64,000 nucleotides of DNA from Paludibacteraceae bacterium (GTDB lineage: Bacteria; Bacteroidota; Bacteroidia; Bacteroidales; Paludibacteraceae), in contig JAFTOD010000002.1 of the NCBI GenBank assembly GCA_017451525.1, positions 190,964 to 254,963 on the forward strand, in the 5' to 3' direction. This document shows, one piece after another, positions 221-53,595 of the stretch; the stretch's first letter is position 1, and each line of letters opens with the position of its first letter. The notes under the pieces are model-generated. The model searched no databases. It saw only the letters and a list, made by a program, of their open reading frames with translations, and was not told where the DNA came from. The position numbers and the translations under genes were made by a program.

Positions 221-249
221 TTTAGTGTTTAGAGTTTAGTGTTTAGAGG
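218..249. repeat. GTTTAGTG/GTTTAGAG word repeat (reverse orientation of the CACTAAA family) between the two permease genes
   Basis: The sequence TAGTTTAGTGTTTAGAGTTTAGTGTTTAGAGG overlaps the stop codon of the upstream gene. Confidence 0.8.
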
Positions 250-250
250 A

Positions 251-1486
251 ATGGACTTTTTTGAAGAAATATGGGCTACGATCACCAAGAACCGTTCACG
301 CAGTATCTTGACGGGCTTTGGTGTCTTCTGGGGTATGATGATGCTATTGGTATTGGTGGGCTTAGGGCAATCGCTCACCCAAGGTATCATGGCTAATGTC
401 GAGGGCTTTGCTATCAATTCGTGCTTTGTTATTCCCGACCGCACCAGCAAACCCTACAAGGGCTTGCAAAAGGGACGAACTTGGTCTATCCACAACCAAG
501 ACATGCCTACTATTCGCCATGCAGCCCCCCACGCTGATGTCATAGCACCCATGTGCTTTGGCGGAGAAAGCACCGTGCGCTTTGGTACATGGCACGATGA
601 GTATAATATGGTGGGTATCACTCCCGACTATCCCAAGATACTATATGTCCCATTGCTCTACGGACGCGAAATCAACGAGATTGATGTACAGGAGAAGCGA
701 AAAGTATGTGTCATAGGCAACGAGGTGTACAACAAACTATTCCCCGAAGGAGGCAACCCCGTAGGCAAACTCTTGCATATTGGCAACATGCAGTTCCGCA
801 TTGTGGGCGTGAAGCAAAAGACCAAAGCGCAAGTCTATCTAGGTGGTCATCCCGACCAACAAGTCTTCTGGCCAATCTCCACGCTGCAGCAAGCTCGCCA
901 ACTGGGCGAAAATATCCATCTCATCATGGCTACTGCCCAATCGAACACACCCGTCAGTATCGTGGAGGAAGAACTGAAGACTGTGCTAAAAGACCTCTAT
1001 ACCATCGCTCCCGATGACAACCGCGCCATGTACACCATGAACATGGAGGAAACGCTCAAAGCATTCCAATATCTGGTTGTCGGATTAAGCGCACTGATAT
1101 GGCTCATCGGTTTAGGCACACTGATTTCGGGTGCGGTAGGTGTCAGCAATATCATGCTCGTAACCGTGCGCGAACGCACCAAGGAGATAGGTATCCGTCG
1201 TGCGATAGGTGCCAGCCCGTGGGTGATTACCAAGCAGATATTAGCGGAAAGTACCTTGCTCACGCTGTTAGCAGGACTGTTAGGCATAGTGGCAGGCGTT
1301 GGCGTACTGCAATTGGCACAACAACTCTTGCAGGGCAATAAGATGTTTAGCCAAGAGATGCAAATCAGTTTTGGCATAGCCATTGGTGGATTAGCCATCT
1401 TATTGGTTATCGGATTATTAGCAGGACTATTGCCTGCTCGCCGAGCATTAGCCATAAAGCCCATTGAGGCACTTAATGAAGAATAA
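251..1486 (+). CDS. ABC transporter permease, FtsX/MacB-type
   Basis: About 411 aa with an N-terminal TM, a large periplasmic domain and a C-terminal FtsX 4-TM bundle (RERTKEIGIRRAIGAS). I prefer ATG 251 (MDFFEEIW) to the GTG at 239, which lies inside the repeat. Confidence 0.85.
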   Translation: MDFFEEIWATITKNRSRSILTGFGVFWGMMMLLVLVGLGQSLTQGIMANVEGFAINSCFVIPDRTSKPYKGLQKGRTWSIHNQDMPTIRHAAPHADVIAPMCFGGESTVRFGTWHDEYNMVGITPDYPKILYVPLLYGREINEIDVQEKRKVCVIGNEVYNKLFPEGGNPVGKLLHIGNMQFRIVGVKQKTKAQVYLGGHPDQQVFWPISTLQQARQLGENIHLIMATAQSNTPVSIVEEELKTVLKDLYTIAPDDNRAMYTMNMEETLKAFQYLVVGLSALIWLIGLGTLISGAVGVSNIMLVTVRERTKEIGIRRAIGASPWVITKQILAESTLLTLLAGLLGIVAGVGVLQLAQQLLQGNKMFSQEMQISFGIAIGGLAILLVIGLLAGLLPARRALAIKPIEALNEE

Positions 1487-3997: not shown

Positions 3998-6901
3998 ATG
4001 AAAAAAATGTTTTTATTGGGCATGGCAATGGTGATGTCGCTGACCATGCTGATGGCGCAAACGCGCGAAGGATTGACCGAGTATAAATTGGATAACGGCT
4101 TGACCGTCATGCTCTGGGAAGACCACGATCAACCTGACGTGACTGGTTATGTGGCCGTGCGTGCAGGTGCCATGGACGAACCTGCAGAATATACTGGTTT
4201 GGCACACTACTTGGAGCACATGCTCTTCAAGGGTACACAGAAAATCGGTGCACTCGACTGGGAGAAAGAGAAGCCCTACTACGAGGAGATTATTCGTCTC
4301 TACGACGAGTATGCAGTGACTACCGATGAGGCAAAGCGTGTAGAATTGACCACCAAAATCAACGAAGCGTCGATTGAGGCAGCTAAATATGCTACCGTAG
4401 AGGACTTCTTCGTATTGCTCGATGGTATCGGTGCTACAGGCGTGAATGCCTTTACCAGCTACGACATGACTTGCTACCACAACTCATTCCCAGCTGCGAA
4501 CATGTACAAGTGGTTGACCATTTTCTCCGACCGACTGATCGACCCTGTGTTCCGTACTTTCCAAGCTGAATTGGAGAATGTGTTTGAGGAGTACAATATG
4601 TACGAGGATAATCCAACTACCCATGTGCGCAAAACACTGATGAGTACGATCTTTGCGGGTCACCCATACGAGCGCGATGTGATTGGTTTGCCAGAACACT
4701 TGAAGAATCCACGCCTCAGCAAACTCATCGAGTTCTACAACACATGGTATGTGCCTAACAATATGGCGTTGATTATCGTAGGTGATTTCGACACAGAGAC
4801 TACCAAACCTATGATTGAGGAGACTTTTGGTCGTTTGGAATATAAGGAGTTGCCAGCGCGTCCTAGCTACCCAAAGACCTCATTTGCAGGCAATCCAAAG
4901 CATAAGTTCAAAATGGGTTACTACCCAATGGTCATTTGGGCATACGATGGTGTGAACATGACCGACGAAGACTTGTTGCCATTGCAATTCGTGGCTTCAC
5001 TGCTCAACAACAGCACCAATACTGGTTTGCTTGACAAACTCAATATCGACGGTATTGTTTCCTCTGCTGGCGTAAGCGTGAATGCGCTTCGCGACCAAGG
5101 TCGTATCATCATTGAGGCTATTCCATATTATGATGCTAACCAACAAGCCTATGAGTCAAATGCCGCTACAGAGAAGATTGTGATGGCTGAAATCAATCGT
5201 CTGAAGAATGGCGATATACCTGATTGGTTGATTCAAACCGTGAAAGCCGAGTATGCACAAAACTACAAGTTGGCGTTCGAGAGCTCAGATACCAAGATGA
5301 ATGCCCTCGTTTCTAGTTTCGTGTACAATACTCCTATTGATGATATCTTCACCGAGAATGAGAAGATTCAAGCACTCACCAAGGAGGACATCCAACGCAT
5401 TGCTAAGAAGTATTTCGATGCAGAATACATGACGTTGGCATTCGACGAAGGTACACCTAAGAAGAATAAATTGGCAAAGCCACAAATCAAGCCACTTGAC
5501 CTCATCAATAGCCAAGAGACTGAGTATGCCAAGGCATTCAAGCAACTGCCACAAGGCGAACTCAAACAAACGTTCATGGATATGAACGACGTGAAAGTAT
5601 TGGATATTGACAACAACGTGAAGCTGCACTATGCAACCAACCCAAAGAACAATATCTTCTCTCTTGACCTCATCTTCGGTATCGGTACGGCTAAGAAACC
5701 TATGCTGGAGTATGTGACTTCGCTCATGAACCGTGGTGGTATCATGCCAAACATTGAGCCACAAGACTTCCGTCGCCAACTCTCTGAGTTGGGTGGTCGT
5801 TGCGCTTACGGCGTGAACGATAGCTACTTCTATGTATCTATCATTGGCGAGGAAGAGCACTTGGCGGAGATTTGCCAATTAGTACAACGCCAAATGTTGA
5901 TGCCTAAGTTCGATACCAAGCAGTTTGATGCTGTCAAGGGTAGCGAGCTCTCCAGCCGCTTCATGATGTCGAAGATGGACGGTCTGCAAGCAGACGCGTT
6001 GCGCCAATACGTATTGTACGGCGACAAATCAGAATACATCGATGTAGTACCATTCATGGATGTATATTACATGGATGAGTTGAAGCTGAAGGTAGAGTTC
6101 CTCGATGCTATCAAATATGCGCTTGATATTCACTATTGCGGACAAAAACCAGTAGAGGAAGTGAAGGATATCTTGACCAAGAACCTTCCATTGCAAGAAG
6201 GCGTACAACCATCTACTTCACCAGAGATTTTGGACAAGAAGACTTACGACAAGACTCAAGTATATTTCTTGGCTAACTCTAACGTACAACAATCCACCAT
6301 CTACTTCTACTTCAATGGTAAGCCATACGACAAAGAGCAATCCGTTCTCTTCCAAGCATTCAACCAATACTTCTCTGGTGGCTTCACGGGTATCGTATTG
6401 GATGAGATTCGCGAGAAACGCTCTATGGCATACACCGCAGCAGGTAATGCCGTGCGTGGACCATTGCCAGGCAAAGAGTCGTACTTCATGGGCTATATCG
6501 GTACACAATCCGACAAGGCAGTAGATGCTATCAATGTATTTATGTCATTGCTGGATTCTATGCCACAATATCCTGAGCGTATCGAGAGTGTGAAAGCCGC
6601 TTTGCGCCAAAACGCACAGACAGCTAAACCATCGTTCCGTGCAAAGACAGAGGTATATGATTCATGGCGTGAGATGGGGTATGAGATTGACCCTGCTAAG
6701 TACAACCAAGAGGCAATCAACAACCTCACCTTCGAGCAAATCATGCAATTCTACGAGGAGAATATCAAGGGACAACCCGTATCTATCATTGTGATGGGTG
6801 ACCCTAAGCTCATCGACCAAAAAGCATTGCAAGCCAAGTATGGCAAGATCGTGAAGGTATCCAAAGCCCGCCTCTTTGCTCCACTCGATTTGGACTTCTA
6901 A
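3998..6901 (+). CDS. M16-family zinc peptidase (insulinase/pitrilysin-like, double-length)
   Basis: 967 aa with a signal peptide and the inverted zinc motif HxxEH (GLAHYLEHMLFKG). The second half is an M16-like inactive domain. Confidence 0.9.
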   Translation: MKKMFLLGMAMVMSLTMLMAQTREGLTEYKLDNGLTVMLWEDHDQPDVTGYVAVRAGAMDEPAEYTGLAHYLEHMLFKGTQKIGALDWEKEKPYYEEIIRLYDEYAVTTDEAKRVELTTKINEASIEAAKYATVEDFFVLLDGIGATGVNAFTSYDMTCYHNSFPAANMYKWLTIFSDRLIDPVFRTFQAELENVFEEYNMYEDNPTTHVRKTLMSTIFAGHPYERDVIGLPEHLKNPRLSKLIEFYNTWYVPNNMALIIVGDFDTETTKPMIEETFGRLEYKELPARPSYPKTSFAGNPKHKFKMGYYPMVIWAYDGVNMTDEDLLPLQFVASLLNNSTNTGLLDKLNIDGIVSSAGVSVNALRDQGRIIIEAIPYYDANQQAYESNAATEKIVMAEINRLKNGDIPDWLIQTVKAEYAQNYKLAFESSDTKMNALVSSFVYNTPIDDIFTENEKIQALTKEDIQRIAKKYFDAEYMTLAFDEGTPKKNKLAKPQIKPLDLINSQETEYAKAFKQLPQGELKQTFMDMNDVKVLDIDNNVKLHYATNPKNNIFSLDLIFGIGTAKKPMLEYVTSLMNRGGIMPNIEPQDFRRQLSELGGRCAYGVNDSYFYVSIIGEEEHLAEICQLVQRQMLMPKFDTKQFDAVKGSELSSRFMMSKMDGLQADALRQYVLYGDKSEYIDVVPFMDVYYMDELKLKVEFLDAIKYALDIHYCGQKPVEEVKDILTKNLPLQEGVQPSTSPEILDKKTYDKTQVYFLANSNVQQSTIYFYFNGKPYDKEQSVLFQAFNQYFSGGFTGIVLDEIREKRSMAYTAAGNAVRGPLPGKESYFMGYIGTQSDKAVDAINVFMSLLDSMPQYPERIESVKAALRQNAQTAKPSFRAKTEVYDSWREMGYEIDPAKYNQEAINNLTFEQIMQFYEENIKGQPVSIIVMGDPKLIDQKALQAKYGKIVKVSKARLFAPLDLDF

Positions 6902-7126: not shown

Positions 7127-7272
7127 GGGCTTTCCTAAAAAAGTTGTCCACTTTCCTAAAACGGTTGACTACGTCCGCAAGATTCTCTGCCTTTACGCCA
7201 TACACTCTACACCCTACACCAGAAAAATCGCCCTGAAATATGATTTTTCTTGCTCAATCCAAAATAATTCTG

Positions 7273-7280
7273 TACCTTTG
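7273..7280 (+). promoter_or_regulatory. -7 box (TACCTTTG) for the AT-rich island operon
   Basis: Matches TAnnTTTG, with TTCTTGC about 20 nt upstream and the ATG 26 nt downstream. Confidence 0.6.
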
Positions 7281-7305
7281 CAAAGTGTATCAAAAATTTA
7301 GCATT

Positions 7306-21494: not shown

Positions 21495-21837
21495 ATCGAG
21501 TTGTTAACCTGAGAATACCCTATCTTCTTCTTATCTTCCCCCTGCCATCCCCCTGTCTCTTTCTGCTTCCTTTCTCGTTACCACTTCGAAACCACTTCGT
21601 TGCCACTCCATTGCCATCCAGTACTTTCCCCGTATCCAGCTACCTATCCTCCGCTCGGCTTCCTAATATCCTCCACCTCCAGCGCAGCAACCTACCAACT
21701 ACAGGCGCACAGCGCCGATCTACAGCGAAGCGAACTACCACCTGTCACCCGCCACCTGTTTAGTGCTCGGCGATAACCCGCCGAGCAAAAAAACACAAGA
21801 AAATGCGATTTTTCTTGCACATTTGCAAATTTTTCAC

Positions 21838-21845
21838 TACCTTTG
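21838..21845 (+). promoter_or_regulatory. -7 box (TACCTTTG) driving RNA copy 1 and the LRR gene
   Basis: Matches TAnnTTTG, with TTCTTGC/TTTGC upstream. Confidence 0.6.
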
Positions 21846-21849
21846 CAAC

Positions 21850-22159
21850 CGCAAACCCAAAGTTTGCAGACATATTATTAAAAGCGTTTACTACGGGGTC
21901 CTCATAATTTTAAGCAATGGGGTGTCCTCAGCGCTTGTTTTGGCTTCCTGAAACTTGGAAACTTTCAATCTATCCAAAACAAGAAGGCAGTAAACGCCCT
22001 TATGGGATATGTATATCCCGCCCGCAGAGCGTCCTTCGTGGACTGCTCTGTTTGGTGGCATTTCATATTCGGCGTGGGCGTTGCTTGCTTGTTCTTATAG
22101 ATAAGGTATTCCAAGACCTCAGGAAGAAGAATAAGCAATGGTAAGGTTCCACGCTTTTT
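21850..22159 (+). ncRNA. Candidate structured RNA, copy 1 (leader or sRNA, family unidentified)
   Basis: It starts just after a TACCTTTG -7 box, and the ORFs inside are short and not conserved with copy 2. Hairpins lie at 21851-21867, 22004-22019 and 22025-22050. A stem pairs 22081-22096 with 22124-22138, and the element ends in a T-run at 22155-22159. It is collinear with copy 2, with compensatory helix changes. Confidence 0.5.
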
Positions 22160-22209
22160 CTATATTTACGGGCAGTCAGGAGCCAACTCCCACACAAAAA
22201 CAAACAAGT

Positions 22210-23925
22210 ATGAAACGAATTTTTACTTTCTTTTTTGCGCTATTGAGCGCATGCACATTCTCTACGTATGCAGCCATTATCGATGGCACCTGCGGTGATA
22301 ACCTCACTTGGACACTCAACACCAAGGATAGCACCTTAACGATCTCAGGTACGGGAAATATGACTTACTCCTCACCATGGTTCGATTACAGATCCTACAT
22401 CAAGTATGTCATCCTTCCTGATGGTCTTACGAGTATTGGAGACAATGCGTTCAGTGGTTGCTCTTCTCTCTCCTCTATCACCATCCCTAACAGCGTAACG
22501 AGTATTGGAGATTATGCGTTCATTCATTGCTCTAGTTTGACTTCTGTGACTCTCGGCAATAGCGTAACAAGTATTGGAAAGGAGGCGTTCAAAGATTGCT
22601 CAGGTTTGACTTCCATCACTATTCCTAACAGCGTAACGAGTATTGGAGAGAATGCGTTCTATTATTGCTCTAGTTTGACTTCTGTGACTCTCGGCAACAG
22701 CATAACGACTATTGAATATGGTACGTTCTCTAAATGCTCTAGTTTGACTTCTGTGACTCTCGGCAATAGCGTAACAAGTATTGGAAAGGAGGCGTTCAGA
22801 GATTGCTCAAGTTTGACTTCCATCACTATCCCTAACAGCGTAACGACTATTGGATATAGGGCGTTCCAATATTGCTCAAGTTTGACTTCTGTCACTCTCG
22901 GCAACAGCGTAACAAGTATTGAAGCTGATGCGTTCTATAGGTGCGAAAATTTGACTTCCATTACCATCCCAAACAACGTAACGAGTATTGGAGATTATGC
23001 GTTCAGTGCTTGCTGGAGTTTGACTTCTGTGACTCTCGGCAAAAATCTTACGAGTATTGGATGGGAGGCGTTCCAACATTGCAGCAGCATCCGAGAAGTA
23101 ACTGCTTTCATGCCTACACCACCTGCGGCTGTAAACTGTGGTCTAAATCCCGCTGCTGTAACTCTTTACGTTCCTGCAGAATATCTTGAAGCATATCAAA
23201 ATGCAGTATGGTGGGAAGATTTCAAAAAAATCCGCGCTATTGGTTCGGATTGGGATGTTGAGTTCGTAGATTGGGATGGTACCATCCTTGCTACAATGAA
23301 AGTGCCTAATGGCGAAGCCGCTACCGCACCTGCTGATCCTACTCGCGAGGGATACACTTTCATCGGTTGGGATAAGGACTTCAGCCATGTGACCGACCAC
23401 ATGACTGTCACAGCACAATACCAAATCAACCGCTACCGCGTGCGTTTCTTCGACTACGACAATACGCTCCTCAAGACAGACTCCGTAGAATATCAAGCTG
23501 CTGCTACAGCCCCTGCTAATCCATACCGCGAGGGATATACCTTTATCGGTTGGGATCAAGAGTTTGATTCCATCACAGCGGACTTGGATGTATATGCGCA
23601 ATACGAGTTTGGTGAAGACTGTGACATGACCATCGTCTTTACCAATAGCGAGGATAATGACAGCGAAATTTATAGTCAATCACTCACAATCAAGGTGCCT
23701 GCTGCACCAGATATTGAGGGCTTTACTTTCCTTGGTTGGCAACCAGTGGCTACATTAATCACAGATACTATCACCATCCAAGCAATCTACGAAGCAGACA
23801 TCCCATCATCCGCTCCAGAGGTATATGTCAATCCTGCTAACCCAGCACAAAAACTCCTCCGCAATGGTCAAGTTTACATTCTGCAAGACGGCAAGACCTA
23901 CACCATCACAGGACAGAAGCTATAA
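22210..23925 (+). CDS. BspA-like leucine-rich-repeat surface protein with Listeria-Bacteroides-type repeats and a T9SS-like C-terminal tail
   Basis: Signal peptide MKRIFTFFFALLSACTFSTYA. It has at least 12 LRR units of about 23 aa (IPNSVTSIGxxAFxxCSSLTSV) and three GYTFIGWD-type repeats. The C-terminus is LLRNGQVYILQDGKTYTITGQKL. I prefer ATG 22210 to the longer 22138 model. Confidence 0.85.
   Translation: MKRIFTFFFALLSACTFSTYAAIIDGTCGDNLTWTLNTKDSTLTISGTGNMTYSSPWFDYRSYIKYVILPDGLTSIGDNAFSGCSSLSSITIPNSVTSIGDYAFIHCSSLTSVTLGNSVTSIGKEAFKDCSGLTSITIPNSVTSIGENAFYYCSSLTSVTLGNSITTIEYGTFSKCSSLTSVTLGNSVTSIGKEAFRDCSSLTSITIPNSVTTIGYRAFQYCSSLTSVTLGNSVTSIEADAFYRCENLTSITIPNNVTSIGDYAFSACWSLTSVTLGKNLTSIGWEAFQHCSSIREVTAFMPTPPAAVNCGLNPAAVTLYVPAEYLEAYQNAVWWEDFKKIRAIGSDWDVEFVDWDGTILATMKVPNGEAATAPADPTREGYTFIGWDKDFSHVTDHMTVTAQYQINRYRVRFFDYDNTLLKTDSVEYQAAATAPANPYREGYTFIGWDQEFDSITADLDVYAQYEFGEDCDMTIVFTNSEDNDSEIYSQSLTIKVPAAPDIEGFTFLGWQPVATLITDTITIQAIYEADIPSSAPEVYVNPANPAQKLLRNGQVYILQDGKTYTITGQKL
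22534..22857 (+). repeat. Near-identical intragenic DNA repeats (207-bp period, equal to 3 LRR units) within the LRR gene
   Basis: 22534-22640 and 22741-22847 differ at only a few positions. Confidence 0.85.
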
Positions 23926-33512: not shown

Positions 33513-33590
33513 TTTATAGCTTATAGTTAATCCGCAACGATATTGTTGCCCGACATATTTAATATAGCGTTATAAGCCAAAACCCTCACT

Positions 33591-33626
33591 GCCATTTATG
33601 CAAAATCCGCATAAATGGCATTTTTA
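33591..33626 (+). terminator. Intrinsic terminator after the transporter gene
   Basis: GCCATTTATGC-AAAATCC-GCATAAATGGC followed by ATTTTTA. Confidence 0.7.
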
Positions 33627-33672
33627 TTTGCACAATTCTTGCTCAATTCTTGCTCAATTCAAAATAATTCAC

Positions 33673-33680
33673 TACCTTTG
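33673..33680 (+). promoter_or_regulatory. -7 box (TACCTTTG) driving RNA copy 2
   Basis: Matches TAnnTTTG. The upstream TTCTTGCTCAATTCAAAATAATTC cassette is shared with 7248-7272. Confidence 0.6.
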
Positions 33681-33685
33681 CACCC

Positions 33686-33979
33686 GTAATCAGCCCACGC
33701 CTTGGGATTATGTCTTTCGGGTGGGATGGTTGCAGACATAATAAAGGCGTTAAAAAGCGCTTTGTGCTTGGCTACTTGGAATCTAGCAAATTTCTTCTAT
33801 ACCCAACACATAGCAGCATTTTGATGTCCTCGGGATATGTAATCTATATCCATACACACTATTGATAGGTGTGTATGTGTGGTACATATCGGCGTGGGCT
33901 CAATGTTGTTTGTTCGGGTATAAAGGCAATGCTAGAGCCTCAAGTAGCGGAACAGCAACAATGCAGTCCCGCTTTTTTT
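33686..33979 (+). ncRNA. Candidate structured RNA, copy 2 (leader or sRNA, family unidentified)
   Basis: It starts just after a TACCTTTG -7 box and contains no ORF of 60 aa or more. A perfect 10-bp long-range helix pairs 33692-33701 with 33891-33900. Four further helices are present, and it ends AGCGG..CCGCT plus T7. Confidence 0.55.
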
Positions 33980-34086
33980 GTGTCGATATACAATATCTAA
34001 TTAACAAACAATAAATCAAATAATTAAACAACGGAGTAAGCCGAAAATCCGATGAAGAGTAGGCATAATAATTAAATTTATTTATT

Positions 34087-34989
34087 ATGAAAAAGTTTTT
34101 TTTCTTTTTTGCAGCACTATTAAGCGGTGTGCAGACTGTGTTTGCTCAAGCAGACTCTACTGCGGTTGAGATGGTAGAACAAACAACTAAAAGTGGGCAA
34201 GTAGGTGAGATTTTACTAGGTATTCTCATTCTGCTCGTTATGTTTGCTATTATTGGTCACATGGTTTATGAATTGTTTATTGTTAAAAAACCAAAGGCAC
34301 TTACTGTTGAAGAGTGTAAAGAGGCTCGTATGAATGCGGGATTGTCTCCTATGACCGAAGAAGAAGCACAAGAACTATTAAACAAAATGGTAGACGATAC
34401 TGAATCTTGGACTTCTTTTGTAAATGCGAACAATGAGGATGATAAAATAATCACTAAATATAGTCAAGCAAAGAAAACACGCCAAGTTTTGGAGGAAGTA
34501 GCAGCAAGCATGCCAGATAATTCTGATGTGGTAGAATGCTACAACTCATTATTGGAAATATACACAGAGTGCACAAAGCGTAAATACAATGCGAGTACAA
34601 CATATATAATCATCTCTGCAGTCTTAATGGTTGGTATGGCAATTTTGTCTGGGGCATATGAAGCGATTGCTTTTTGTGCAGTATCAGTTGGTATTTATAT
34701 AATGGCAAGTATGACACCTAATTATATCCTAATAAAAAAAGAACTAAAAGGCAGAAGAGGTCCTAAGTTCATGTCTGGATTTATTGCGGGTATTCTGGGT
34801 GGTGTTGCAACAGCAGAAACCGTAACTACAGTAACCAAATGGAGTGATGGAACAACCACGAAAGATGTAGATAATTCTAATTTCTGGATCTCTTTAATTT
34901 TGTCAATCGTTCTTTTTGTTGTATTGGCAATATTCATGTTCGTACTTGCGTTTATCAATTATTTACGCAACTATGTATTTCATTTTTAA
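34087..34989 (+). CDS. Hypothetical multi-pass membrane protein (AT-rich)
   Basis: 300 aa with a signal peptide, one TM, a charged helical soluble region and about 4 C-terminal TM helices. I recognise no motif. Confidence 0.6.
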   Translation: MKKFFFFFAALLSGVQTVFAQADSTAVEMVEQTTKSGQVGEILLGILILLVMFAIIGHMVYELFIVKKPKALTVEECKEARMNAGLSPMTEEEAQELLNKMVDDTESWTSFVNANNEDDKIITKYSQAKKTRQVLEEVAASMPDNSDVVECYNSLLEIYTECTKRKYNASTTYIIISAVLMVGMAILSGAYEAIAFCAVSVGIYIMASMTPNYILIKKELKGRRGPKFMSGFIAGILGGVATAETVTTVTKWSDGTTTKDVDNSNFWISLILSIVLFVVLAIFMFVLAFINYLRNYVFHF

Positions 34990-37133: not shown

Positions 37134-37162
37134 AATAATGATTGTTTTTTCAAAATTGTTTG

Positions 37163-37170
37163 CAAAGTTA
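37163..37170 (-). promoter_or_regulatory. -7 box (TAACTTTG on the minus strand) for the acidic small protein gene
   Basis: Reverse complement of CAAAGTTA. It is divergent from the cdsA promoter. Confidence 0.5.
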
Positions 37171-37182
37171 CAATTTTTTTGC

Positions 37183-37190
37183 TACCTTTG
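37183..37190 (+). promoter_or_regulatory. -7 box (TACCTTTG) for cdsA
   Basis: Matches TAnnTTTG, 30 nt upstream of the ATG. Confidence 0.6.
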
Positions 37191-37220
37191 CAAATTATTT
37201 GACAAAAAATAGAAAAAGAT

Positions 37221-53483: not shown

Positions 53484-53513
53484 TTGACAATTGATAGTTT
53501 ACAATTTGCGGTG

Positions 53514-53521
53514 CAAAGGTA
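53514..53521 (-). promoter_or_regulatory. -7 box (TACCTTTG on the minus strand) for mnmA
   Basis: Reverse complement of CAAAGGTA, 31 nt upstream of the start. Confidence 0.55.
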
Positions 53522-53595
53522 GGTGTTTTTTTGCAAATGTGCAAGAGTTTGCATAAAAAACACTTATGATGGTTGTGTATTTCATTATTTTTTTG

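Follow-up and report, generated by a model that had tools for sequence, protein, structure and literature searches.

The 64,000-nt stretch of contig JAFTOD010000002.1 of a Paludibacteraceae bacterium (GenBank assembly GCA_017451525.1; the whole stretch is called the window below) was found to carry, on its + strand, two diverged copies of one structured RNA element, each lying between a promoter and a protein gene. That the family to which they belong is a real and strongly constrained RNA is, in our judgement, practically certain. Its function is best described, with about an even chance of being right, as that of a cis-acting transcription-attenuation leader. The attenuation leader is favoured because an upstream pairing supported by covariation overlaps a supported stem that abuts a U-run, and the fixed position of the element before promoter-less genes argues for a role in cis. 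In this model, which is drawn from comparative sequence and computed folds, transcription would terminate conditionally at the U-run, one of two folds would be adopted by default, and leader and downstream gene would be transcribed together.

Two diverged copies of one element and their family

The first-pass annotation of this DNA had taken copy 1 for a second, diverged copy of the structured element present at copy 2, and the searches bore this out: with nhmmer the two copies were alignable over their full length (E = 1.5e-10), they scored E = 3e-61 (copy 1) and 1.5e-70 (copy 2) against a hidden Markov model (HMM) of the family, and at least 110 further homologues were found. Compared with dinucleotide shuffles, fold stability reached z = -7.2 in copy 1 and -7.8 in copy 2. 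Both copies are preceded by the Bacteroidetes TAnnTTTG promoter box and share collinear blocks exactly where these had been proposed, namely TTGCAGACATA at 21864 (copy 1) and 33730 (copy 2), GGGATATGTA at 22004 and 33832, and CATAT(T)CGGCGTGGGC at 22064 and 33885; the distance from the last block to the start of the T-run, first given as about 75 and 73 nt, held roughly and was measured as 76 and 75 nt. The similarity stops beyond the generic promoter and does not run on into the flanks as after a recent duplication. No further copy was detected in the window by BLAST, nhmmer or the family HMM; elsewhere in it BLAST recovered the promoter part only, from the 5′ ends of the copies.

Species-representative genomes were then scanned with the pattern GGGATATGTA N{35,65} TCGGCGTGGGC, which returned at least 115 loci. 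The homologues beyond the two window copies are all from Bacteroidales and occupy at least 58 genomes, with at least five copies per genome reached among the matches listed. By our own estimate about eight chance matches were expected, and five were seen among the matches listed, in Paenibacillus, Streptomyces (two), Verrucomicrobiales and Bacillota. Carriers include Paludibacteraceae, Prevotellaceae, Paraprevotella, Muribaculaceae, Bacteroidaceae and several Candidatus genera, and one locus in a metagenome-assembled Paludibacteraceae genome from faeces (L021) is near-identical to copy 1. The members fall into subtype A (49, with copy 1), subtype B (36, with copy 2) and about 20 more divergent sequences. 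In 108 of 112 members GGGATATGTA is preceded by the TAnnTTTG box at a distance of 112-250 nt (typically 122-200), the T-run ends 80-93 nt past TCGGCGTGGGC in all members except three, and in the 106 members having both box and T-run the unit is 272-393 nt long.

The placement of the family relative to genes is fixed on one side only. When the first open reading frame (ORF) of at least 80 amino acids within 600 nt downstream was counted, it lay on the same strand as the leader at 89 loci and on the opposite strand at 2; a median of 54 nt separates the U-run from the start codon, and a TAnnTTTG box occurs inside this spacer in 5 of 85 cases. Upstream genes, on the other hand, stand in either orientation and are unrelated (150 Pfam families among 84 proteins), and no conserved neighbour was found among these 84 upstream proteins.

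No known RNA family accounts for these leaders. At the gathering threshold, Rfam 15 matched only the DUF805b motif (34031-34065) in the whole window, and only tRNA and DUF805b in 16 homologous loci (119 kb); with all 4227 models at E <= 10, both copies gave only spurious miRNA, snoRNA and viral matches of 15-20 bits. In the literature searched, no described Bacteroidales leader of this kind was found, although an unnamed entry in a large-scale motif catalogue is possible. The working principle is already known; what is new with respect to Rfam 15 and the searched literature is the family as such, with its size, copy number and gene set, and how extensively it would refold. Plasmid and phage collections gave no family match by BLAST, and a viral contig collection gave one true copy, of Prevotellaceae type, and two chance matches; with a single true copy in viral contigs and none in the phage collection, a phage element was rejected.

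A long-range rod supported by covariation

To describe the fold, 68 family sequences were aligned (alignment A2), and a rod-shaped structure was derived from RNAalifold together with explicit pair counts (Table 1). In this rod 97.0% of the cells were paired, compared with 84.4% in shuffles and 29-49% when the partners were slid by 1-3 columns, and 338 two-sided changes were counted against 96 in shuffles. The helices are thus kept by compensatory changes, as the first-pass annotation had argued from two copies, and the at least 110 homologues likewise preserve them instead of disrupting them. Three to five pair types occur at every pair of R1, and some rod columns show four to five; pair 268/381 of R5 is G-C in 40 sequences and A-U in 26, and H0 has 99% of its cells paired with two-sided changes at two pairs. 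G·U pairs are frequent at columns 148/195, 272/376, 288/356 and 373/461, among others, and since these would be A·C mismatches on the other strand, the + strand is the strand that folds as RNA.

R3 was poorly aligned by MAFFT and was therefore examined by duplex energy, comparing strands of the same copy with strands taken from other copies. Mean energies were -8.0 (own) and -2.9 kcal/mol (other copies) for R3, -7.1 and -0.8 for R1, and -11.2 and -5.2 for R2, and control strand pairs showed no such difference. By the same test, an extension of the rod between strands b and p (R0) had no covariation support, and a helix between the 3′ end and the 5′ strand of H0 had no general support. R1, R2 and R3, the three best-supported helices, had been missed at first, and the dominant pairing is this long-range rod. 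Within a subtype, R1-R3 are hypervariable (35-72% identity) yet strictly complementary, in a scaffold that is 85-100% identical; strands with only one partner may simply have drifted, or 'barcodes' specific to each paralogue may have been selected.

Several local features first read from the two copies could be placed in this framework. The AAGCG/CGCTT stem of copy 1 with its extra nucleotides corresponds to H0 with an optional insert of about 43 nt (21888-21930), and the apical hairpin is R7, which is real in the 68-member alignment and differs in sequence between the copies with its pairing kept. The distal stem TTGCTTGTTCT/AGAATAAGCAA is helix T2. The short GGAA/TTCC helix proposed last before the T-run did not survive: it is not conserved in subtype A, and the bases that precede the U-run generally have the invariant GCGUGG(G) block as their partner.

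An invariant strand with two exclusive partners

A second set of helices, X, P3, P3′ and T2 together with T1, is not nested with R1-R3 and is also supported (Table 1). The two strands of T2 pair with a mean energy of -13.0 kcal/mol within a copy and -10.3 kcal/mol across copies. In T1 the invariant block CGGCGUGGGC is paired with the bases directly before a run of 4-8 U. The two arrangements compete for the same bases, as R5/R4 and T1/T2 share columns 374-376 and 387-390, and they are therefore mutually exclusive. The suggestion of a pseudoknot or of exclusive folds, made at first for the two copies, was in this way strengthened.

Evidence for the double pairing came from a divergent sequence lying outside the search pattern (L059, positions 4415-4735). 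Here G374 of the invariant block is changed to A, and both of its proposed partners, C274 in R5 and C460 in T1, are changed to U; R5 turns from AAACGCCC/GGGCGTT into AAATGCCT/AGGTTT, and T1 from GCGTGG/CCACGC into GCGTAG/CTACGC. The covariation of R5 and T2 pairs, together with this change of column 374 along with both partners, argues that both the putative terminator stem and the alternative antiterminator pairing that overlaps it are under selection. The L059 sequence, on the + strand, represents a third, divergent leader subtype with the core GGGTATG...CATACCAGCGTAGGT, and its genome has four canonical copies too. A metagenome collection was also scanned for variants at column 374 with the pattern GGGATATGTA N{42,64} TCGGCGTHGGC; no single-base variant was found there, all 19 matches being unrelated to the family.

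The pattern of conservation agrees with such a competition. Within subtypes, the strands having two proposed partners (b, f, g, k, l, p and q) are 85-100% identical, those of R1 and R3, with one partner, 35-60%, and those of R2 63-72%. The linkers b-c, o-p, l-m and e-f are only 0-1 nt long.

Proposed mechanism

In the attenuation model each copy would work as a self-contained unit of promoter, structured leader RNA and U-run, placed before a gene without its own promoter. The switch strand would be the invariant CGGCGUGGGC with the following UUGCUUGUUC, for which two alternative partners are available. Pairing backward (R5/R4 and the inner rod R1-R6) would leave the bases before the U-run free, and RNA polymerase would read into the gene; pairing forward (T1/T2) would form a hairpin of about 90 nt ending at the U-run, and transcription would stop. 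The 5′ domain (X and P3) would fold first, with the early-forming X as a kinetic gate: the choice of fold may be kinetic because X and P3 must unzip before the rod can form. Prefix folding agreed with this order, as X was predicted first and was replaced by the rod once the 3′ strand of R3 emerged. What would tip the balance might be a protein or a small molecule, or else temperature or the rate of transcription; a candidate site for such an effector is the sequence-invariant junction GGGAUAUGUA / CAUAUCGGCGUGGGC.

A bolder version, which we hold to be rather improbable, would make the family an RNA sensor of a new class. As a riboswitch for some signal, or as the target of an antitermination factor, it would gate genes for surface, secreted and envelope-modifying proteins in Bacteroidales of gut and rumen, by an unusually large refolding from rod to cloverleaf. 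R1-R3 would then serve each paralogue as a 'barcode', against cross-pairing or for locus-specific feedback by the terminated RNA. Bacteroidales are dominant bacteria of gut and rumen, and to our knowledge they have no Hfq, ProQ or CsrA; what is known of how they control their surface proteins concerns chiefly DNA-level mechanisms, namely invertible promoters and UpxY. If the model is right, a large and strongly covarying leader RNA would add a new layer to the control of the cell surface in this order, acting on promoter-less genes that include those for adhesin-like LRR proteins. The family is large enough for a covariance model, and its candidate decision site is invariant.

Folding energies and alternative explanations

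A number of observations weigh against attenuation. In nested models the rod was the minimum free energy (MFE) fold, and forcing T1/T2 cost 11 kcal/mol on average (0.7-14 kcal/mol in subtype A, 9-20 in subtype B); the exception was one subtype-A member (L031), in which the forced fold was the MFE, and in no other member did T1/T2 appear in the nested MFE. The U-run is preceded by a long-range stem and not by a compact hairpin, and a simple terminator scanner called no terminator at the U-run, the loop of the T1/T2 hairpin, which spans about 90 nt, being too large for it. T1 showed no two-sided covariation in the main alignment, its changes being one-sided because the search pattern had fixed its 5′ strand, and the three-way compensation was seen in a single sequence, the L059 copy. 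Also, no effector candidate emerged, and the downstream genes share no single pathway. On the side of attenuation, a T1/T2/P3′ hairpin followed by a U-rich tail was obtained in 58 of 68 sequences when the 3′ domain was folded alone, with a mean of -35 kcal/mol. Finally, the nested energy models cannot score pseudoknots, and strand connectivity permits a single compact fold of everything except R4/R5 versus T1/T2. One such fold would combine a four-way junction of X, R1, T2 and R3 with a P3-P3′ kissing contact made through R2; termination would then perhaps be constitutive.

The last point leads to an alternative that we regard as possible but doubtful, namely one compact pseudoknotted fold without any switch, in which T1/T2 is a constitutive terminator of an abundant and stable RNA of about 300 nt. 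Such an RNA would act as a trans regulator derived from the 5′ leader, as a protein-binding scaffold, or as a modifier of its own polymerase like put or EAR, with a fraction of transcripts reading through. X, P3, P3′, T2, R1, R2 and R3 are all supported by covariation at once, the 0-1 nt linkers fit a perfect four-way junction, the canonical strong promoters suggest high expression, and the link to surface and polysaccharide genes recalls operons with processive antitermination. However, the compensation between strand g and the invariant block (the two pair types at 268/381; U274-A374 in L059) is left unexplained, and no Rfam match was obtained, 6S and the known antitermination RNAs included. 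A purely trans RNA, moreover, would not share the orientation of a promoter-less gene 54 nt away at 89 of 91 loci, and the neighbour-independent orientation of an independent trans small RNA gene was not observed (89:2).

The attenuation model was also set against three explanations that are largely excluded. With nhmmer each copy could be aligned to its reverse complement (E about 1e-8), which makes it a long imperfect palindrome; as the element is also multicopy (at least five per genome among the matches listed) and stands upstream of unrelated genes, a selfish or neutral palindromic repeat carrying a promoter, of the miniature inverted-repeat transposable element (MITE), repetitive extragenic palindromic (REP) or Correia kind, was considered, with the structure as a by-product of the inverted repeat. 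We consider this very improbable: the copies differ by compensatory changes (4-5 pair types per column, 97-99% pairing) and not by random decay, a G·U strand asymmetry is needless for a DNA palindrome, the orientation to the next gene is fixed at 89:2, and the element also has blocks that are conserved without being palindromic, besides its U-run and a putative 5′ pseudoknot domain. In addition, transposase, integrase or resolvase genes are rare upstream (3 Resolvase matches among 84 proteins), and plasmid and phage collections yielded nothing. Slightly less credible still is a 6S-like rod that mimics an open promoter and sequesters RNA polymerase, which the MFE fold recalls, being a long imperfect rod closed by the 5′ and 3′ ends with conserved internal loops; no 6S match was obtained even at E = 10, the element is multicopy, tied to downstream genes and much longer than 6S, and its local helices X and T2 covary. 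The lowest credence goes to a leader-peptide attenuator or small protein gene, in which conserved ATGs in GGGATTATGTCT and GGGATATGTA would start a short ORF that governs the fold by being translated. In most copies ATG-initiated frames of between 14 and over 100 codons can be traced, but their lengths and stop positions vary, subtype A lacks the first ATG, and the distance between blocks takes all values modulo 3 (14/9/13 in subtype B), so that a conserved short ORF is absent.

Parts of the two copies and their promoters

The 5′ ends of the copies differ, as had been noticed: copy 1 lacks the 5′ domain of copy 2 and has a simple hairpin there. In copy 2 the sequence AGACATAAT, immediately 3′ of the stem, complements the loop ATTATGTCT, which points to a putative pseudoknot whose nested part appears in the predicted fold; the same arrangement with another sequence (GGGATGTCTGC / GCAGACAT) occurs in some subtype-A members. 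The sequence GCAGACATAAT shows 82-88% identity within each subtype. In copy 1, the loop of hairpin P3 holds the 5′ strand of R2, and strand g, the putative antiterminator strand, pairs with the invariant block. Most members lack the H0 insert, but both subtypes include some that have it, which suggests modular gain or loss, or exchange between subtypes; as an insert module of about 43-45 nt (CGGGGTCC...GGGGTGTCC) in the H0 loop it was seen at eight loci of the family besides copy 1.

Sequences resembling the leader promoters (TTGCnCAA...TACCTTTGCA) were observed in the window at 7236-7283 (+), 37160-37193 (+) and 53505-53546 (-). Since the first and the last of these stand before ordinary protein genes, the leaders appear to use the standard strong promoter of the genome and not a special one. 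The unit of copy 2 is probably insulated from upstream transcription, because a canonical compact terminator precedes its promoter. Just 5′ of the copy 1 promoter lies a GC-rich hairpin, GCTCGGCG...CGCCGAGC, with an A-run (21765-21793, +), which in + orientation is a terminator for neither adjoining gene.

Table 1. Coordinates of the leader RNAs, their helices and adjoining features. Columns refer to alignment A2 and positions to the window.
Feature	Alignment columns	Window positions	Strand	Remarks
Promoter of copy 1		21811-21845	+	-33-like TTG 21815-21817; -7 box TACCTTTG 21838-21845; motif match
Copy 1 leader RNA, subtype A		21846-22161	+	end of -7 box to end of U-run
5′ hairpin, copy 1		21851-21877	+	GCAAAC/GTTTGC (21851-21867), then conserved single-stranded AGACATATT; in place of the copy 2 pseudoknot domain
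H0, copy 1		21883-21935	+	AGCGT/GCGCT; optional insert hairpin of about 43 nt, 21888-21930
5′ domain, copy 1		21936-21983	+	X 21936-21943 / 21974-21983; R1 21944-21950; P3 21951-21966; R3 21967-21973
Core, copy 1		21984-22070	+	strand g 21984-22001; R6 GGGATATG/CATATTC; apical hairpin R7 22013-22057
Switch strand (putative), copy 1		22070-22095	+	invariant CGGCGTGGGC (k) and TTGCTTGTTCT (l); pairs 5′-ward (R5/R4) or 3′-ward (T1/T2)
3′ partners, copy 1		22096-22126	+	R3 22096-22104; P3′ 22105-22118 (R2 3′ strand in loop); R1 22120-22126
3′ side of putative terminator hairpin, copy 1		22128-22161	+	T2 22128-22140; T1 TCCACGC 22148-22154; U-run 22155-22161
HP2		22170-22191	+	hairpin GGGCAGT/ACTCCC, loop CAGGAGCCA; between copy 1 U-run and start codon 22210
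Gene after copy 1		22210-23925	+	BspA-type leucine-rich repeat (LRR) / Listeria-Bacteroides repeat protein, N-terminal signal; Pfam LRR_5 1.4e-78, Flg_new 6e-21
Canonical compact terminator		33590-33620	+	12-bp stem, then T-run; ends Asp-Al_Ex/TrkA_C permease gene
Promoter of copy 2		33650-33680	+	TTGCTC 33650-33655; -7 box TACCTTTG 33673-33680; motif match
Copy 2 leader RNA, subtype B		33681-33981	+	end of -7 box to end of U-run
5′ pseudoknot domain (putative), copy 2		33685-33745	+	stems GTAATCA/TGGTTGC and CCCAC/GTGGG
Switch strand (putative), copy 2		33890-33915	+	invariant CGGCGTGGGC and TGTTGTTTGTTC
3′ end, copy 2		33949-33981	+	T2 GGAACAGCAACA 33949-33960; T1 33968-33974; U-run 33975-33981
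DUF805b RNA (RF02914)		34031-34065	+	42 bits, gathering threshold 35.6; between copy 2 and start codon 34087
Gene after copy 2		34087-34989	+	300 amino acids, signal or membrane segment, no Pfam match
H0	144-148 / 195-199
R1	210-217 / 426-433	copy 1 21944-21950 / 22120-22126; copy 2 33772-33778 / 33941-33947
R2	223-228 / 415-420	copy 1 21954-21959 / 22110-22115; copy 2 33782-33787 / 33931-33936
R3	238-247 (5′ strand)	copy 1 21967-21973 / 22096-22104; copy 2 33795-33802 / 33916-33924
R4	260-263 / 387-390
R5	268-273 / 374-381			with C274, partner of G374
R6	279-288 / 356-372
X	about 200-209 / 248-257			own partner -10.1, other copies -7.1 kcal/mol
P3	219-222 / 232-235			pair 220/234: A-U 37, G-C 25
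P3′	408-411 / 422-424			pair 411/422: C-G 41, U-A 22
T2	384-397 / 435-447			95% paired; pair 392/439: G-C 39, A-U 23
T1	370-376 / 458-464			92% paired; GCGUGG(G)/CC(C)RCGC

Downstream genes and small elements after the leader

The BspA-type LRR gene, with which the element was linked at first, does follow copy 1, but as a rule the link failed, being one case among diverse downstream genes. The 89 downstream proteins contained 78 Pfam families, and their products included BspA-type LRR proteins (10), MBOAT proteins (5), GtrA, DUF4988, collagen-like and Lcl_C proteins, proteases, glycosyltransferases, lipoproteins and acyltransferases. A signal-peptide-like N-terminus was predicted for 62% of the downstream and 13% of the upstream proteins. 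From such sequence features, the downstream genes appear mostly to encode exported or envelope proteins; subtype B also stands before some cytoplasmic proteins.

Between the U-run and the start codon, small hairpins were found to recur. HP2 follows 37 of 48 subtype-A leaders, 0 of 36 subtype-B leaders and 7 of 21 others, and several leaders of Prevotellaceae type are among those that have it. It lies 15-40 nt past the U-run, and the start codon comes about 20 nt after it. Its stem covaries at six of seven pairs, its loop is conserved as UGGAGCC/UGGAACC, and no Rfam model matched it, that of DUF805b included. After copy 2 the same position is taken by the DUF805b motif, 50 nt past the copy; the leaders themselves gave no match as members of that family, which is a 35-nt hairpin whose loop is GGAAGCCGAAAA and whose tail is AGAGUAGGCA. 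Of ten occurrences of the motif in about 1 Mb of loci, nine lay no more than 500 nt past a leader of subtype B or o7, after which it is often the small element present, and nine loci besides the window carried it. This orphan motif may hence be no more than the end part of a much longer leader, and it gains a context in that apparent role.

A further conserved and structured stretch was noticed 100-250 nt past the U-run of subtype-B leaders at seven loci. It contains a 14-bp stem ATGAGTAACTTCTC/GAGAAGTTACTCAT around GGTATTCTCAGGACCTCAAGG, which resembles the P3′ region of the leader, and at several loci a short hairpin and T-run like the 3′ end of the leader precede it.

Comparison with known systems

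The leader is most like terminator/antiterminator leaders such as riboswitches, the T-box and protein-dependent attenuators. It shares with them the position 5′ of a gene, a stem with a U-run, a strand of this stem that has an alternative upstream partner, and an invariant decision region amid variable peripheral helices. It differs in that nearly 230 nt would refold, from a rod to a set of hairpins, that the family reaches at least five copies per genome among the matches listed and precedes unrelated genes, and that a long-range putative terminator stem is combined with the absence of an Rfam 15 match and of a known ligand or protein. DUF805b (RF02914) occupies the same leader region at copy 2 and at least eight other loci, where some 20 nt separate it from the start codon. 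It is a 35-nt hairpin, whereas the present leader, which precedes it, is about 300 nt long, and the two have no model match in common.

In their position in the leaders of surface-structure operons, the cis elements put (phage HK022), EAR (Bacillus) and the UpxY/ops leaders are comparable. put and EAR are far smaller, and neither is known to end in a terminator of its own. In the capsule leaders of Bacteroides that are served by UpxY, a pause hairpin is combined with a conserved DNA element; the ops consensus YGCGNAGCR and the pause hairpin are not present in our leader, and no upxY-like gene follows it. The FopS RNAs of Bacteroides are 65-70 nt long, with a single-stranded seed and a terminator, and act in trans on susC mRNAs. 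FopS and GibS resemble the present family in being paralogous and multicopy, in having canonical sigma-AB promoters and in their link to the cell surface; unlike FopS, our RNA is 4-5 times longer, almost fully paired and fixed in cis before a gene. By comparison with the published descriptions, identity with UpxY/ops leaders or with FopS small RNAs was excluded. MITE, REP and Correia elements, finally, are likewise multicopy, intergenic and self-complementary, from which the present element is set apart by its covariation, its strand asymmetry, its fixed orientation and its own promoter and U-run.

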